A stretch of DNA of 45,777 bases from Candidatus Doudnabacteria bacterium (lineage in GTDB: Bacteria > Patescibacteriota > Doudnabacteria > UBA920 > O2-02-FULL-48-8). Numbering within the stretch: position 1 is the stretch's first letter; the number at the start of each line of letters is the position of its first letter. Shown one piece after another: positions 658 through 22,653 of this stretch. The translations under genes and the position numbers were made by a program. The stretch spans positions 1 through 45,777 of the forward strand of contig JACQHB010000005.1 of assembly GCA_016199215.1 (NCBI GenBank), written 5' to 3'. The notes beneath the pieces are model-generated. The model ran no database searches and was not told where the DNA came from. It saw only the letters and a program-made list of their open reading frames with translations.

Positions 658-1319
658 CACTATCGATTATTATCCCGGTTTACAACGAAAGCGAAACTCT
701 GGAGGCAGTCCTTGAAAAGGTCAACAGGGCCGATACCAACGGATTTGAAAAAGAAATTATTATTATTGATGACGGATCCAACCCGTCGCTTCGTAAATCT
801 GATTTTAACGGCTATCTGTTTATCAAACACAGCAAAAATCTTGGCAAGGGCGCTGCCATAAAAACGGGCCTTGGCCTCGCCACCGGAGACATAGTATTGA
901 TACAGGACGCAGACCTTGAGTATGAACCGCAAGACTTCCCTTCCCTGCTTTCCCCTTTTTCAGATCCGAATGTTCAAGCGGTCTATGGCTACAGAACAAA
1001 GCCAGGCTACAAATCTTTTTACTTTGGCAATAAATTATTTACTGGATTCGTAAATATGCTTTTTGGCTCAAACTTAAGAGATCCTTACAGCGGATACAAA
1101 GCAATAAAAAAACCGCTGCTTGATTCCCTACAGCTGGTCAGCGACAAATTCGAGATTGAGGCGGAAATTACATCCAAATTGCTTAAGAAAAAAGTAAAAA
1201 TCCTGCAGGTTCCGATTGCTTACTATCCGCGGACCTTTGAGAAAGGCAAAAAAATTAAGTTTTTCAAAGACGGAGGCAAAGGCCTCTGGACGTTTCTAAA
1301 ATACCGGTTTCTTAAATAG
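654..1319 (+). CDS. Glycosyltransferase family 2 (DPM1/polyprenol-phosphate glycosyltransferase-like)
   Basis: LSIIIPVYNE, IIIDDGS, NLGKGAA, IQDADLEY, DPYSGYK, FEIEAEIT motifs. Confidence 0.9.
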   Translation: MTLSIIIPVYNESETLEAVLEKVNRADTNGFEKEIIIIDDGSNPSLRKSDFNGYLFIKHSKNLGKGAAIKTGLGLATGDIVLIQDADLEYEPQDFPSLLSPFSDPNVQAVYGYRTKPGYKSFYFGNKLFTGFVNMLFGSNLRDPYSGYKAIKKPLLDSLQLVSDKFEIEAEITSKLLKKKVKILQVPIAYYPRTFEKGKKIKFFKDGGKGLWTFLKYRFLK

Positions 1320-1332
1320 TTTGGATATACTC

Positions 1333-1370
1333 TGTACAACTTACTGCTCGATCGAGCAATGTTTTGTACA
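1333..1370. repeat. Palindrome family A, copy 1 (TGTACAA-N5-TGCTCGATCGAGCA-N5-TTGTACA, 38 bp)
   Basis: tgtacaa cttac tgctcgatcgagca atgtt ttgtaca. Confidence 0.95.
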
Positions 1371-1379
1371 AGCCAAAAC

Positions 1380-2075
1380 CTAAATAATTTTTTTCCTAAA
1401 AACCACATTCCATTGCCCAAGTTCTGTCGAACCATCTGGTTTGACTTTTTCGTCTACGGGACTCCCAACCAAGTCAAAACCGTTTTCGTCAGCAAGCTTC
1501 TGGATCTCTTCCAACGAAAAACGATGAACAATGACACTTGCCCCGCTTTCGTCCTTCTCTCTAAGCCAAGTTTCTTTTTCACCAGGCAATTCAACCGCTC
1601 CTTCTTGTGTCAAATTAGTTATAGAATTGACTCTAAAAAAGAAGAGGCCGCCGGGTTTTAAAATTCTAGCGGCTTCGCGGAACGCTTCAGCCCTCGATTC
1701 TTTTCTCCCGTTGTGCAGGGCTTGGATCGCTACGGCAGTATCAAAACTGCCATCAGCGAAAGGCAATTTTCTAAAATCAGCCTGAACTACATCCGCGTTA
1801 GGAAGCTGTTTTTTTATCTGTTCCAAGCCAACTTTTGAAGCATCAATGCCTGTTACTTGATAGCCCAGTTCAGCAAGAGGAACTAAATGCCTGCCGCCGC
1901 CTGTGCCAATATCCAAAATCTTTGGGCCAATCTCTTCTCGAAATTTTTCAACAAACTCCAAAAGCCTGGGCTCCGGAGATTTATCTTCTGACCATCCCTG
2001 TTCATGCCTAAAATCCCAACGCTTAATCACATTAGTTAATTCGTTGTCGGGAATATATTTAGGGTATTCTGACAT
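1380..2075 (-). CDS. Class I SAM-dependent methyltransferase
   Basis: ILDIGTGGG motif I, VTGIDAS, ADFRKLPFADGSFD, ILKPGGLF. Confidence 0.9.
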   Translation of the reverse strand: MSEYPKYIPDNELTNVIKRWDFRHEQGWSEDKSPEPRLLEFVEKFREEIGPKILDIGTGGGRHLVPLAELGYQVTGIDASKVGLEQIKKQLPNADVVQADFRKLPFADGSFDTAVAIQALHNGRKESRAEAFREAARILKPGGLFFFRVNSITNLTQEGAVELPGEKETWLREKDESGASVIVHRFSLEEIQKLADENGFDLVGSPVDEKVKPDGSTELGQWNVVFRKKII

Positions 2076-2093
2076 AATGATTTCCGGCTAACA

Positions 2094-2131
2094 TGTCCAA
2101 CTTCCTGCTCGATCGAGCGATGTTTTGTACA
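2094..2131. repeat. Palindrome family A, copy 2
   Basis: tgtccaa cttcc tgctcgatcgagcg atgtt ttgtaca. Confidence 0.92.
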
Positions 2132-2164
2132 ATAAGTTAAACCTGCCTATTACAAGGGATGTTT

Positions 2165-3040
2165 TTATATCTCTGGATAGCCGAGGATAGGAATTTCATA
2201 ATCACCATATCGCCATACGCGTTGGCTTTCGGCCGGAGCGGATATAAAAGTGTTGTCGATTGACGCAGCGCTTGATTCGGGGCTAATATAAACGCCATCG
2301 CCGCAATTTGTTATGGTGTTATTTTTAATAATCTGTGAGCCAGCGATAGACGCTATGCCGGTATGGCAATCGTCTATAATATTGCCCGCGACTTCTTGGC
2401 TGCCTTGGGATTTAAGATCAATTCCTTCGTGCCCCGCGTCAGATAAATGATTGTTTATTATTTTTATATTTGAATTGGCCGAGGATATAGCTCCCCACAG
2501 GGCATGTCTGGATATGGTATTTTGGATAACACTGTTCGGCTGTTTTCCCGTAGGATTAAGACCGTTGCGAGTATATTCAACAATAACGTTATCAATAATA
2601 CTTCCATCACCTCGAAAAATAATTGCTTCCCAATCGGCTAAATCTGGTTTTTGCGCCGCTGATGTAAAGGTGATCGGCTGGGTTTGAGTCCCTTTGGCAA
2701 TTAATTTTCTTAAGATAAAAAGGCTTGAATGGGTGGTTGAATATGATTTAAGCCGCGTTGGATCCTTGTCATTAAAGCCGTCCGGAGGCACTTCATCGCC
2801 CCAATGGCGGTCATCACCGATAGAGAACTTAATTGTTGTCCCAGACAAGACAGTAAGATTGCCAAAAATTTGAACGTCCCCGGTGACATCAATAGTACCG
2901 CTCCAAATCTGGTTGCCGATAAACCGCCCGCTTACGGAAGTATTAGATTTCTGCGTTGTCGAAAGAAATTTATAGACAATAATAACAAGTATGAGAGTTA
3001 TAATTACCGCTAGAATATATAAGATCTTTTTCCAGTTCAT
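2165..3040 (-). CDS. Membrane-anchored right-handed beta-helix (NosD/pectin-lyase-like) protein; likely start MNWKKILY at 3040, not 3331
   Basis: N-terminal TM (ILYILAVIITLILVIIVY), GTTIKF, PITFTS, repeated I.NN.I...GI units. Confidence 0.7.
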   Translation of the reverse strand: MNWKKILYILAVIITLILVIIVYKFLSTTQKSNTSVSGRFIGNQIWSGTIDVTGDVQIFGNLTVLSGTTIKFSIGDDRHWGDEVPPDGFNDKDPTRLKSYSTTHSSLFILRKLIAKGTQTQPITFTSAAQKPDLADWEAIIFRGDGSIIDNVIVEYTRNGLNPTGKQPNSVIQNTISRHALWGAISSANSNIKIINNHLSDAGHEGIDLKSQGSQEVAGNIIDDCHTGIASIAGSQIIKNNTITNCGDGVYISPESSAASIDNTFISAPAESQRVWRYGDYEIPILGYPEI

Positions 3041-3062
3041 AACAAAATTCTTTATTGGCTGG

Positions 3063-19125: not shown

Positions 19126-19638
19126 TTATTTTCGTCCTTTGCTTCCTTTAATAGTTACAGCGATTTTACGCGGAGCGGTGCTCGCGGCTTTGTCCACCAA
19201 ATCGGAACTGGATTGGATCTTGCCGCCCCTGCCGATGTTAAAAACCATCCTGATTCCAAGTTTCCGGCAAGTTTTAATATCTTGATGCAGGGACGAGGAG
19301 GGGTGAACCGCGTCTTTTTTGTTCCTGTCTCCGCCGTTGGCAAATATGTCCGGCTTAAGCCTGGCGAGCGCCTCGGAAACGCTCATGTCTTGCGGGTCCT
19401 TTGGGTGTCTGGTGACAATCACCATATCAACCCAGCGGATCGCCTCCAAAACTTCCTTCCGCTCAACCACTGACATAAAATTGTATTTCTTTTTTTTCTT
19501 AAGCCAATTATCGTTGTTTAAAATTACAACCAGCTGATCGCCCAAGGCCCGGGCTTCTTTAAAAAGTCGAATATGCCCCGGATGTATGGGATCAAATCCC
19601 CCGCTTACGGCCACCACGACTTTTTTATTATCATTCAT
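19126..19638 (-). CDS. Cytidylyl/adenylyltransferase family (TagD/RfaE-like)
   Basis: GGFDPIHPGH (HxGH), ANGGDR, SSS motif. Confidence 0.88.
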   Translation of the reverse strand: MNDNKKVVVAVSGGFDPIHPGHIRLFKEARALGDQLVVILNNDNWLKKKKKYNFMSVVERKEVLEAIRWVDMVIVTRHPKDPQDMSVSEALARLKPDIFANGGDRNKKDAVHPSSSLHQDIKTCRKLGIRMVFNIGRGGKIQSSSDLVDKAASTAPRKIAVTIKGSKGRK

Positions 19639-20083
19639 TGTGATCAGTTTGATGAAAATTAATATTCTTCTCTATGAATGTTAATGACTCCAAGCTGTCT
19701 CTGGTTATATTTTCAGGAAGATTGTTAACATCGAACCACCCCAGTTCTGAACAAAGCCGAGGTTCTTTAATCTCTAGTTCTCTTTCCCAGCGGTGAATTT
19801 CAAAATATATATGCAAACGCGAATGATCACTCCTAAGCACGCTTCTTACGTGGACCAGCTTCGCCTCTCTCGGATCAATTTTTATTCCAAGCTCTTCTAA
19901 ACCTTCGCGCTTAAGCGCGTCCAAAACGAGCTCACCCTGATCCACGTGGCCCCCAAACAAATGAAATTTTCCATCCGCCCAGCCAGTGTTTTGCCTTTTG
20001 CCAAGCAATACCTTGCCGTCCTTTTTTAAAACCAAATGTACAGCAACAACAATTTTAAACCGATCTTTCGGGTCAATGCTCAT
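19631..20083 (-). CDS. NUDIX hydrolase
   Basis: GGHVDQGE...DALKREGLEELG Nudix box. Confidence 0.9.
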   Translation of the reverse strand: MSIDPKDRFKIVVAVHLVLKKDGKVLLGKRQNTGWADGKFHLFGGHVDQGELVLDALKREGLEELGIKIDPREAKLVHVRSVLRSDHSRLHIYFEIHRWERELEIKEPRLCSELGWFDVNNLPENITRDSLESLTFIEKNINFHQTDHNE

Positions 20084-20145: not shown

Positions 20146-20168
20146 AGCTTATTTTGGCATGCCAGCGA

Positions 20169-20226
20169 CAAAAGGTCAAAAAACTACTTGTCCAATGTTG
20201 TGCTCGATCGAGCAATGTTTTGTACA
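20169..20226. repeat. 58-bp direct repeat, copy 1 (contains palindrome A copy 3 at 20189-20226)
   Basis: Identical to 20829-20886, offset 660 bp. Confidence 0.97.
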
Positions 20227-20227
20227 C

Positions 20228-20797
20228 TTATCCCACCGCTTCTTCGATTAATTTTTTCGTCAAGTCAACTGGGAGACCCGCGACACTTTCAATTGTTCCT
20301 TCCAGGCGATCAATAAACTTTGAAAAAGGTTCCTGTTCGGCGGCGAAACTTCCGGCATGCTCGAACACTTTACCGCTCTCCACAAATTGTTCGATGTCCT
20401 CTTTTCGAAAAGGCTTAAAATAAATTGTTACCACATCAACTCCTTCGACAATTTTGCCTGTTTTAATGTTTGTCACGACAACCGCAGCCACTGTCTGTAC
20501 TGGCTTATCTCTAAAACCCAATGCGATCCGGTAGGCTTCTTCTTTCGATTCCGGTTTTTCCAGAATTTCACCATCAAAAACTACCACCAAATCAGAGGTT
20601 ATTAGAATCGAATCAGAATCAATACTTGGAGTCAATGCCACTGCTTTCGCTCTGGCTAAAGTAAGAGTTAGTTCCTTAGGATCCCTACATCTTATTGATT
20701 TCTCATCAATATCAGCAGTAATCACTTCAAAGTCAAAGCCCATATCTTTTAAAATTTTCCTCCGCCTTGCCGAACCTGATCCTAACACAATTTTCAT
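20228..20797 (-). CDS. maf: Maf family nucleotide pyrophosphatase
   Basis: IVLGSGSARRRKIL, IDEKSI, ARAKA, TSDLVV, KPES.EEA, AG. Confidence 0.93.
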   Translation of the reverse strand: MKIVLGSGSARRRKILKDMGFDFEVITADIDEKSIRCRDPKELTLTLARAKAVALTPSIDSDSILITSDLVVVFDGEILEKPESKEEAYRIALGFRDKPVQTVAAVVVTNIKTGKIVEGVDVVTIYFKPFRKEDIEQFVESGKVFEHAGSFAAEQEPFSKFIDRLEGTIESVAGLPVDLTKKLIEEAVG

Positions 20798-20828
20798 AAT
20801 CGTTGAAGTTATTCTCTCACCAAATAAT

Positions 20829-20886
20829 CAAAAGGTCAAAAAACTACTTGTCCAATGTTGTGCTCGATCGAGCAATGTTTTGTACA
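20829..20886. repeat. 58-bp direct repeat, copy 2 (contains palindrome A copy 4 at 20849-20886)
   Basis: Identical to 20169-20226; encodes the last residues and stop of the PaaX-like ORF. Confidence 0.97.
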
Positions 20887-21377
20887 TGCTCGAGTCGACC
20901 GGAAAAAACCTTGACGTCATTCATCAATTTGAGTTCTTTTATCAAATCAGCGACATCATTTGAAATCTTAAAAGGGCTTATAAAAGCGCTTTTTTGAAAT
21001 TGAGTGTAACCATTTCTAACCAAAAAGCGGCGGAAAGAATCTCTTGCCTTATGTTTTTCTTCAGGAACGTCAAATAATACGACGGTAGACAACCCGTCTT
21101 TCCGTAAAACTTTCTTAACAGTACTCTTTCTTATTGTTTTAGCCTTTTCTGTTAATATATATGTACTTGGATATTTTTTTCGATCTTTTTTCACTAATCC
21201 TAACTTTACAAATTTTCTCAAACGGTAATAATACGTTTGCCGGGGAATGGTAAGAACTCTTAACTTGCCGTAAGGCGTAAAAGCAATTTCCTCTGCAAGC
21301 AGCCCCAGCTCCTTGATCATATCCCAAAGTTCCTCGGTCGCAATGCGAAGTATTTGCTTTGATGATAAATTCCTCAT
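20844..21377 (-). CDS. PaaX-like protein: winged HTH plus Cas2-like (PaaX central) domain
   Basis: wHTH (YYYRLRKFVKLGLV...YILTEK) then VVLFDVPEEKHKARDSFRRFL...GYTQFQKSAFISP. Confidence 0.82.
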   Translation of the reverse strand: MRNLSSKQILRIATEELWDMIKELGLLAEEIAFTPYGKLRVLTIPRQTYYYRLRKFVKLGLVKKDRKKYPSTYILTEKAKTIRKSTVKKVLRKDGLSTVVLFDVPEEKHKARDSFRRFLVRNGYTQFQKSAFISPFKISNDVADLIKELKLMNDVKVFSGRLEHVQNIARSSTTLDK

Positions 21378-21385
21378 AATTCAAT

Positions 21386-21423
21386 TGTACAACTTTGTGC
21401 TCGATCGAGCAATGTTTTGTACA
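21386..21423 (-). promoter_or_regulatory. Palindrome family A, copy 5, forming the promoter of the PaaX-like gene
   Basis: Minus strand TTGCTC-N17-TACAAT, 6 nt before the ATG. Confidence 0.8.
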
Positions 21424-21433
21424 TATTACATAT

Positions 21434-22396
21434 TTACCACGGTTTGTCCCAATCAAAACCGCGGCCGAAGTGCCCCCAAGAAGCCGTGTTTGCAAAAATC
21501 GGACGGTTAAGTTTCAACAATTTTTTAATTCCTGCGGGAGTCAGGTCATATTGCTTGCTGATATCCGTTATCTGATATCTACTATCTGATTTGAGGACTT
21601 CCGCTGTTGCCATAACCGGCAAGGGTTTCCCAATCGCGTAAGCCAGTTTTACTTTTACCTCTTTAGCTTTTTTCTTCTTTAAAAGGTCAACCGCTATTTT
21701 GCGGGCCATATAGGCTCCGCTGCGGTCAACTTTCGTGGCGTCCTTTCCCGAAAAACTCCCACCGCCCACGGAAATTTCAGGCCCATAAGCGTCAATCACT
21801 ATTTTACGCCCCGACAAGCCGGAATCCGCGTCAAAGCCGCCGAGAGTCCATTCGCCAGCCGGATTAACAAAATATTCCTCGGACTTAATAAGTTTTTTTG
21901 CAAGCTTCAACAGATCTTTAGTTTTTGAATTTTGAAAAGACGCGACAACAGCCAGGACTTTCTTCTCATCAACGGTCACTTGGACCTTGCCGTCAAACGG
22001 GTAGATTTTATAAATTTTTTGGCACAGTTCGCGCGCGAGATTGTATTCCTGCGGCATAAAATTTTCACTCTCTGCCGTGGCACAGCCAACCATGATTCCC
22101 TGATCCCCTGCTCCGCCCTGATCAACACCGCGAGCGATAAACGGGCTTTGATGAACCGTGTGCAAGTGAACGTGGTAACCCTTCCCAACGACTTTTTTAA
22201 CAACAGCTTCTATGTCAACTTTAGCTTTGCTTGTTATTTCGCCGCTTATAGAAACCCCTTTATGACCTCCCATAACCTCAACCGCCACCCTGGAATTCGG
22301 GTCTTTTTTTAAATAAGCGTCCAGAATGGAATCAGCAATAAAATCGCAAATTTTATCCGGATGCTTTGGGCTTACAAACTCGCAAGTTTTGATCAT
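21434..22396 (-). CDS. metK: S-adenosylmethionine synthetase (short form)
   Basis: TCEFVSPKHPDKICD, GAGDQG, NPAGEW..GG...DSGLSGRKI, GGGSFSGKDATKVDRSGAY, WGHFG. Confidence 0.96.
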   Translation of the reverse strand: MIKTCEFVSPKHPDKICDFIADSILDAYLKKDPNSRVAVEVMGGHKGVSISGEITSKAKVDIEAVVKKVVGKGYHVHLHTVHQSPFIARGVDQGGAGDQGIMVGCATAESENFMPQEYNLARELCQKIYKIYPFDGKVQVTVDEKKVLAVVASFQNSKTKDLLKLAKKLIKSEEYFVNPAGEWTLGGFDADSGLSGRKIVIDAYGPEISVGGGSFSGKDATKVDRSGAYMARKIAVDLLKKKKAKEVKVKLAYAIGKPLPVMATAEVLKSDSRYQITDISKQYDLTPAGIKKLLKLNRPIFANTASWGHFGRGFDWDKPW

Positions 22397-22439: not shown

Positions 22440-22446
22440 AGATCGC

Positions 22447-22628
22447 GTTATCTTTCCCTCTCGGGCTGGATTTGGCACCTTCTTATGTAGTCAGTCGATT
22501 TATCGACTCGGTTGAGCTGATAAATCAGCCCCGAACCAGACACTCCGTGTCGGTACGGGGCAGGCTGACTACGAAAGGGTTGCCGGACGGATCATAAGGC
22601 CAGAACCTTTCCCGTCACTCTTGATATT
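22447..22628 (-). ncRNA. SAM-I (S-box) riboswitch with an 86-nt insertion in P3
   Basis: Minus: ATATCAAGAG..GGGAAAGG..CTGGCC..ATGA...CGGCAACC [insert] GGTGCCAAATCC.GC....GAAAGATAA; upstream of metK; TTGCTT-N17-TATAAT promoter at 22643-22671. Confidence 0.9.
22487..22572. mobile_element. Palindromic element (family C) with GTAGTCAG/CTGACTAC termini inside the riboswitch
   Basis: Internal palindromes agtcgatttatcgact and gctgataaatcagc plus ccccg...cgggg hairpin. Confidence 0.75.
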
Positions 22629-22653
22629 ATTCAATTTTAAATATTATAGATCT

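Follow-up and report, generated by a model that had tools for sequence, protein, structure and literature searches.

A perfect 58-nt repeat around maf in a Doudnabacteria genome and its possible origin as a duplicated mini-PaaX operator-promoter segment

The maf gene in this contig of a Candidatus Doudnabacteria genome lies between two identical direct repeats of 58 nt. On balance, we lean to the view that the repeat is a duplicated operator-promoter segment of the adjacent regulator, a shortened PaaX-like protein that we call mini-PaaX; that its two copies head an intact and a ghost maf unit; and that the copies were made identical later. Each 58-nt copy would then combine a 38-nt site (S) that is recognized by the adjacent mini-PaaX with the -35 box of the promoter downstream. 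The anatomy of the repeat, the geometry of the promoters, and the ghost can all be read directly from the DNA.

The repeat and the two maf units

A repeat search of the window (the whole stretch of 45,777 nt that we analyzed) found two copies of 58 nt with 100% identity, whose starts are 660 nt apart (Table 1). This confirms the perfect repeats around maf that an earlier note on this DNA had described. There is also a partial third copy at 21366-21423, which is 74% identical overall and identical across its final 30 nt. Each 58-nt copy consists of a 38-nt composite palindrome, S, and 20 nt on one side only, which contain a -35 box (TTGACC). On the plus strand, the S of the repeat pair reads TGTCCAATGTTG-TGCTCGATCGAGCA-ATGTTTTGTACA, with outer arms TGTnCAA/TTGTACA, a 14-nt core palindrome, and 5-nt non-symmetric spacers. 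The 28-nt core pattern occurs five times in the window, versus none expected from shuffles of the window, so the repeat is far beyond chance. The complete identity is special to the maf pair, since the other S copies in the genome match it less well, at 33-36 of the 38 positions of the palindrome and at 5-10 of the 20 in the extension. The 20-nt extension is common to the two maf-flanking copies only.

All of the genes at this locus are on the minus strand, and the order is metK, S3, regulator, copy 2, maf, copy 1, NUDIX, nucleotidyltransferase-like gene. Copy 1 begins 1 nt past the maf stop and heads the ghost-maf/NUDIX unit. Copy 2 is the 3' site of the regulator module and heads the maf unit; the regulator's reading frame runs through it (VQNIARSSTTLDK, then the stop), and its 20-nt extension holds the regulator's TAG stop (20844-20846) and 15 nt of 3' flank. 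The earlier note had taken these 20 bp for the stop and 3' flank of the PaaX-like gene, and the unit between the repeats for maf plus one site; both readings hold, as this unit is exactly one gene plus one site.

Table 1. Features of the maf locus and of the second S-bracketed unit, in window coordinates
Feature	Coordinates	Strand	Details
Repeat copy 1	20169..20226		S 20189-20226; extension 20169-20188; -35 TTGACC 20174-20179, minus strand
Repeat copy 2	20829..20886		S 20849-20886; extension 20829-20848; -35 TTGACC 20834-20839, minus strand
S3, 5' promoter copy of the regulator (putative operator)	21386..21423		palindrome centre 27 nt before ATG
Mini-PaaX regulator, 177 aa	20844..21377	-	winged helix and Cas2-like PaaX_M; domain search, predicted structure
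Intact maf, 189 aa, between the 58-nt copies	20228..20797	-	PF02545, TIGR00172
Ghost of an earlier maf, 21 codons	20080..20145	-	MKIILDCLLEDLAKKLIEEVP, then stop
NUDIX hydrolase and cytidylyl/adenylyl-transferase-like gene	19126..20083	-	NUDIX 19631-20083; transferase-like gene 19126-19638
metK	21434..22396	-	upstream anchor of the region around maf, conserved in relatives
Second S-bracketed unit	1333..2131	-	S5 2094-2131; methyltransferase 1380-2075; S4 1333-1370

The maf gene is intact: its product matches PF02545 with 144 bits across positions 1-186 of 187 and reaches 124.9 bits for TIGR00172 (the cut-off is 117.15). The ghost that lies directly downstream, before NUDIX, retains 5 N-terminal and about 12 C-terminal codons of maf, and its TGA overlaps the ATG of NUDIX. 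This position of the ghost implies that the intact maf is the extra copy. In both units, TTGACC is 17 nt from a TG-extended -10 hexamer: TGnGAGAAT for the intact maf (hexamer at 20811-20816) and TGcCAAAAT for the ghost (hexamer at 20151-20156), which is 17 nt from the -35 box in copy 1. The ghost spacer reads TCGCTGGCATGCC and the maf spacer ATTATTTGGTGAGAG. The locus is thus made up of two homologous site-promoter-maf units, one of which has decayed.

Beyond the 58 nt, the two units align at 8/11 positions in the -10 region, 15/19 at the start of the gene, and 21/24 at its C-terminus, or 73-88%. The ghost agrees with the intact maf at 24/31 and 14/18 positions, and with the maf of another genus at 22/31 and 12/18. 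By these alignments, the two units appear to be about as diverged outside the 58 nt as maf genes of different genera are. The closest homologues of maf are 60-63% identical, and none of these has flanking palindromes. Looking up the exact maf product gave no record, and there were no closer copies in the databases that we searched.

The surroundings of maf are conserved in relatives, where the NUDIX and nucleotidyltransferase-like genes are its usual downstream partners. The order metK-x-maf-(NUDIX)-nucleotidyltransferase-secD is kept in genomes G014, G011, G002, G022, and G009 and in a Logan contig (P0017). In G014, the order is maf-NUDIX-nucleotidyltransferase-PLD, and our ghost sits at the position of G014's maf. 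In G011, G002, and G022, the order is metK-x-maf-nucleotidyltransferase-secD, and G009 and P0017 are similar. We found the regulator module between metK and maf in this genome only. Because maf belongs between metK and the nucleotidyltransferase gene in the relatives, the regulator module is the newcomer here. A pair of maf genes at this position was seen in no other genus. In G001, a genome of the same genus, nothing matches the regulator, maf, or S, and the contig breaks off within the nucleotidyltransferase gene, which leaves no close comparison for the locus.

Upstream of metK, there is a SAM riboswitch (22445-22630, minus strand) in which all 108 model positions are matched; its score of 40.4 bits, versus the Rfam gathering cut-off of 44.4, is consistent with an insertion in one arm.

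The mini-PaaX regulator and its palindromes

The regulator contains a PaaX_M domain (PF20803; 59.3 bits versus a gathering cut-off of 24; residues 98-166), and a second paralogue in the genome has the same Cas2-like middle domain (62.4 bits). Pfam gave no match to a PaaX_C domain in the regulator, and the PaaX equivalog model TIGR02277 scores just 30.2 bits, far below its cut-off of 264.55, which is why we speak of mini-PaaX and not of PaaX proper. The cas2 model TIGR01573 scores 30 bits, just over its cut-off of 24.5, and the Cas2 model in PADLOC matches as well. In Foldseek, the top matches for the C-terminal domain of the model were Cas2 chains. The AlphaFold model has moderate confidence (pLDDT of 71). 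It aligns with the PaaX structure 8a39 across 136 columns (TM of 0.48, on the query), with 3kfw across 134 columns, and with Rv0674. In the model, an N-terminal winged helix leads into the middle domain, the same architecture as in the solved PaaX structure. Homologues of the regulator stop at around query residue 164-166, so the last 13 residues (VQNIARSSTTLDK) are a read-through into S2, the palindrome of copy 2.

We found no Cas1 (PF01867) in the 521-kb assembly, which is 79% complete; the controls were positive. The only match to an Rfam CRISPR family is below the threshold and lies inside metK. A CRISPR remnant was rejected, as Cas1 is missing and the sites enclose genes. The full-length form of the regulator was not found in any other assembly by exact look-up, and a metagenome scan found one locus, at 49% identity, and no close relative. 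We found no paper on PaaX together with Cas2, or on PaaX together with Cas2-like proteins in the CPR.

To see how sites of this kind are arranged around related genes, we collected 31 loci of the regulator family from 15 of the 25 genomes in the taxonomic family, and one metagenome contig in addition. The upstream and downstream flanks share a private palindrome at 24 of the 31 loci (score of at least 16) or 28 of the 31 (at least 12). For comparison genes from the same loci, the counts were 7/137 and 18/137, and several of the seven were neighbors sharing a site or window genes that were fetched twice. In at least 10 loci, exactly 27 nt separate the centre of the upstream palindrome from the ATG, and hexamers similar to TACAAT or TATAAT come after the palindrome. 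By its position, the upstream copy would be a promoter-operator overlap with an essentially leaderless start; its role as an operator is a prediction. S3 has this geometry too, with TTGCTC-N17-TACAAT on the gene strand and the ATG 6 nt further on. In most loci, the downstream palindrome is centred 20-32 nt after the stop, typically about 22 nt, and the two flanking copies are in direct orientation. Orthologues of the regulator from five other genera (43-54% identity; in G021, G011, G022, G017, and G010, and also in the metagenome contig) have both sites, 537-558 nt apart, with cores that are specific to each genome and centres such as GATC, GTAC, or GGCC. Because the genes of this family are bracketed in the same way, the site at the 3' end of our regulator is an old, standard part of the module and not an integration scar.

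That each paralogue has its own palindrome, placed 27 nt before its ATG, is indirect evidence that S is the site of the adjacent mini-PaaX; we infer binding and repression from this arrangement. The S copies would form, with the regulator gene between them, a conserved operator-gene-operator module, to which a further copy has been added past maf in this genome. The second mini-PaaX paralogue (173 aa; C4:65464-65934, in locus L029 at C4:65408-66005) illustrates the module as well. It is bracketed by a perfect 40-nt pair, the last three bases of whose repeat are the gene's ATG, and two further solo copies of its palindrome are at C1:30948 and C14:5529. Perfect 40-nt and 30-nt pairs at other sites indicate that neighboring sites stay identical in this genome.

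The neighborhoods of the regulator module differ between genera. Arrays of S-gene-S-gene-S with other cargo are present in G010 (a 192-aa protein) and in G007 (an HD-domain protein, adjoining NUDIX), which suggests a recurrent regulatory layout, not a one-off accident. From this cargo, the family may have a recurrent link to enzymes of nucleotide house-cleaning (maf, NUDIX, HD). At one G007 locus (L031, on C4 at 1309-3050), a regulator paralogue is convergent to HD-domain and NUDIX genes, with S-like sites between them. At locus L026 of G017 (contig C1), the place of the usual palindrome is taken by tandem repeats of a 13-nt unit (ATGATTAAATATG), which make up the 90 nt before the ATG of a regulator paralogue.

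We searched the whole genome (521 kb in 16 contigs, a metagenome bin with 45% GC) for S and found seven copies, six full and one variant. Three are at the maf locus, two surround a methyltransferase gene, one is in the frame of tsaD on contig C8, and the variant is on C4. All of the full copies have one orientation relative to minus-strand genes and the common non-symmetric spacer AATGT. Since the non-symmetric bases are shared, the copies must descend by copying and not by convergent point mutation. They enclose genes at distances of 537-761 bp. No Rfam family matches S.

The other enclosed gene encodes a class I SAM-dependent methyltransferase. It has no orthologue in the 24 related genomes of the family (the best hit is 35% identical in those genomes and 50% anywhere), and its best match in PADLOC is mad2, with 79.6 bits. 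Its downstream site, S4, occupies the spacer that separates it from a convergent GT2 glycosyltransferase gene. Like S4, the 3' sites of loci L014, L015, and L016 are in convergent intergenic spacers, and another copy is inside tsaD. As these copies have no gene to regulate, S may do more than serve as an operator.

The tsaD copy (C8:56055-56092, locus L006/L047) reads VQNIARSSKKLD and is in frame. In G001, there is a palindrome at the same tsaD codons with the core GTCCGATCGGAC instead of GCTCGATCGAGC; the two differences are symmetric, compensatory changes, and they alter the protein too. A recent insertion of S into tsaD, similar to an RPE, was therefore rejected. Judging from these changes, selection acts on palindromy itself inside tsaD.

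The S variant at C4:34095-34130 is a perfect 30-nt palindrome (ACAATTTTTGCTCGATCGAGCAAAAATTGT) at a gene's end. Beyond it, at C4 34200-36400, Arg, Ala, and Gly are abundant in the open frames, a sign that the G+C content may exceed that of the rest of the genome; this stretch may be foreign or mis-binned DNA. The genome contains other private palindromes as well: TCCGCC..GGCGGATCCGCC..GGCGGA (three copies), ACATAAA..TGGCGATCGCCA..TTTATGT (two copies), and CACTTGCTTACGGGCCCGTAAGCAAGTG (two copies). In G002, a solo S-type palindrome with the TGCTCGATCGAGCA core lies directly past the valS stop in a convergent spacer (C38:735-772, locus L007); the two G002 regulator genes that we examined carry other cores.

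The genes that lie between S copies have an unusual composition. Among the 396 long ORFs of the genome, the GC3 of maf (0.347), the regulator (0.365), and the methyltransferase (0.384) is at the 4th, 7th, and 8th percentiles, versus 0.46-0.54 for the backbone genes metK, the nucleotidyltransferase gene, and secD. These values, together with the lack of methyltransferase orthologues in the 24 related genomes, make the S-bracketed genes look acquired.

How the identical copies may have arisen

The explanation that we favor, duplication of the operator-promoter segment followed by homogenization, would run as follows. The identical copies head tandem units, of which one is S, -35, -10, and maf and the other is S, -35, -10, ghost maf, NUDIX, and nucleotidyltransferase. 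The extra site-promoter-maf unit, compositionally foreign, would have come in upstream of the resident maf via recombination in the site-promoter segment. The resident maf would then have collapsed through an internal deletion, and the neighboring site-promoter segments would later have been homogenized by gene conversion of the RecA type; the genome does encode RecA. The regulator would bind all of the copies, would repress its own leaderless promoter at S3, and would co-regulate maf and the NUDIX operon, possibly via looping between sites that are 537 and 660 bp apart.

The step of homogenization matters for the age of the event. Several positions of S can differ between copies, and little in the extension apart from the -35 box is needed. 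Because the flanks have diverged while S tolerates changes, the identity at 58/58 positions does not give the age of the duplication. As the units outside the 58 nt are as diverged as between genera, the perfect identity is younger than the duplication. We infer gene conversion between the neighboring sites as its most likely source, and the foreign origin of the intact maf unit is likewise our interpretation. Otherwise, the segments must be the crossover tract between partners that were already identical, and diverged donors would not have supplied such partners. The identity ends sharply, which a crossover or an integration would explain as well as a conversion tract does. A recent tandem duplication of the whole unit was rejected, as the spacers and gene remnants are diverged and the 58 nt are perfect.

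The earlier note had proposed a recent integration, at the downstream end of the PaaX-like unit, of a 660-bp circle that consisted of maf and one 58-nt site; a single crossover would have inserted the circle, and it could excise again. Part of this stands: the intact maf, beside its ghost, is an added unit, and the structure, one gene and one site with sharp boundaries, is exactly what a single crossover inside the 58 nt would produce. Also, 58 nt of identity can support recombination at low frequency, RecA is present, the three S-bracketed genes have their aberrant GC3 (and the methyltransferase its lack of orthologues), the regulator module turns up in varying neighborhoods across genera, and several downstream sites lie in convergent spacers with nothing to regulate. 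The arrangement of regulator, maf, and repeats is not fixed across distant relatives, being absent from the other 24 genomes of the family. But the recency does not follow from the perfect repeats, as the units are just 73-88% identical beyond them, and the supposed point of integration is an ancient, conserved part of the module (24-28 of 31 loci). A circle would have needed the resident's same 58 nt, including 20 nt that are common to no other S copy, and since its maf and promoter differ from the resident unit by 12-40%, conversion would still be required and the event would be undated. Furthermore, maf sits where it lies in five other genera, its closest homologues lack flanking palindromes (for which reason we rejected maf as a travelling cassette), and three-site arrays recur elsewhere with other cargo. 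A 660-bp circle would have no replication function. There is no integrase or other dedicated recombinase near the locus; the genome has one Xer-like tyrosine recombinase, on contig C12, outside the window. No contig with an empty site is on record, and exact look-up found the full-length regulator in no other assembly. A hopping circle of 660 bases is possible, and we consider it unlikely that a recent integration of this kind explains the locus.

We are a little more doubtful of an old, endogenous tandem duplication of the site-promoter-maf segment, in which the downstream copy decayed, and conversion and selection kept the segments identical, all without foreign DNA. Everything that is retained of the two units is collinear and homologous, and the syntenic maf homologue of P0017 (60%) is as close as the homologues outside this synteny (63%), so these identities do not mark the intact maf as foreign. 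However, the intact maf and the maf of another genus resemble the ghost to a similar degree, which implies that either both copies were functional for a very long time or they have different origins; also, no other genus has two maf genes here, and maf is at the 4th percentile of GC3, unlike metK, the nucleotidyltransferase gene, and secD. A different reading would take the S sites to be both operators and joints of a small cassette system of the CPR, in which gene-plus-site units (the regulator itself, maf, and the methyltransferase) are moved by recombination or cleavage at the palindrome. The Cas2-fold domain, with the invariant aspartate of its FD[IV]PE motif, would possibly help the exchange, and the 58-nt pair around maf would be a fresh joint. 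This would explain the foreign composition, the identical non-symmetric spacers, the varied neighborhoods, and the copies at gene ends, in convergent spacers, and in tsaD; we think it quite improbable. Least credible is an assembly artefact, that is, a repeat loop that was traversed or strain variants that were joined, with just one copy in the real chromosome. The assembly is a metagenome bin of 16 contigs and 79% completeness, and if reads do not span the repeat, a de Bruijn loop A-R-B-R-C looks the same as A-R-C plus a circle R-B. Yet building the contig requires both junctions (maf stop to S, and S to the ghost spacer) to be in the reads, and 58 nt is less than the read length, so ordinary reads span the repeat. 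In addition, Logan contig L104, from an independent run (SRR12113385), is 100% identical to 20198-19144 of the window and begins 30 nt inside the repeat. With k=31 in the Logan graph, 30 nt is k-1, as expected at a true branch; the repeat is thus not peculiar to this assembly. Looking up the methyltransferase, NUDIX, and metK gave only short Logan contigs that are 100% identical to the window and cannot span the 58-nt repeat. An artefact is very improbable.

Significance and comparison with known systems

If the duplicated operator-promoter segment is indeed what the repeat represents, it would be an example of a regulatory site that acts as a hot spot for in-place gene replacement: the operator-plus-promoter segment stays identical while the genes behind it turn over. 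The module would widen from a regulator between two of its own sites to a regulator plus cargo genes, each between sites. We found no paper describing a palindrome-bracketed mini-PaaX module. The sites predict a small regulon (maf, NUDIX, nucleotidyltransferase, SAM-dependent methyltransferase, and tsaD) in a host that cannot be cultivated. And if the sites also turn out to be recombination joints, ultra-small bacteria would have a gene-cassette mechanism of a new kind.

Among the closest known systems is PaaX (E. coli W; structure 8a39), which represses the paa operons and responds to phenylacetyl-CoA. Both proteins have a winged helix and a Cas2-like middle domain, and a palindrome over the regulator's own promoter is as expected for a repressor. 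Mini-PaaX is about half the size, lacks PaaX_C, and scores 30 bits for TIGR02277, against a cut-off of 264. Also, its gene lies between two direct, 38-nt composite palindromes at fixed distances, and there are no paa genes here. Mini-PaaX also matches models of Cas2, but we found neither Cas1 nor a CRISPR match above the Rfam threshold in this assembly, which is 79% complete.

In-situ displacement of a gene by a xenologue or paralogue is known to leave a pattern similar to ours, with an intact maf directly upstream of a 21-codon maf remnant. The difference is that both units here share the regulator's site and the -35 box, with 58 nt identical and the rest diverged, which points to recombination or conversion that was centred on the regulatory site.

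In REPIN-RAYT systems, or REPtrons, a single-copy gene is likewise flanked by its own palindromes and each paralogue has a private repeat family; more copies are found at gene ends, and vertical inheritance and concerted evolution of the repeats are shared features too (PMC3116915, PMC3337134). Mini-PaaX is not a Y1/HUH transposase (in Pfam it matches PaaX_M only, and no His-hydrophobic-His motif is visible), the flanking S copies are direct and not inverted, there are only 2-7 copies per genome, and the upstream copy is built into the promoter.

An integron cassette is an ORF plus attC, which is integrated at attI or attC by IntI. The resemblance is that the regulator, maf, and the methyltransferase are each followed by one imperfect palindrome in the same orientation. 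However, there is no IntI here, S lacks the R''/L''-L'/R' organization of attC, the S units carry their own promoters, and the site co-varies with the adjacent regulator paralogue. Integrons, REPIN-RAYT, and IS200-like elements were all rejected because their defining enzymes are absent.

Finally, auxiliary operators and repression loops are known from lac (O1, O2, and O3) and gal (OE and OI). As in those systems, a few hundred bp separate the several copies of the putative operator, and one copy is located past a coding sequence or within it. In contrast to lac and gal, the second putative operator of mini-PaaX lies at a fixed distance past the regulator's own stop in most members of the family.
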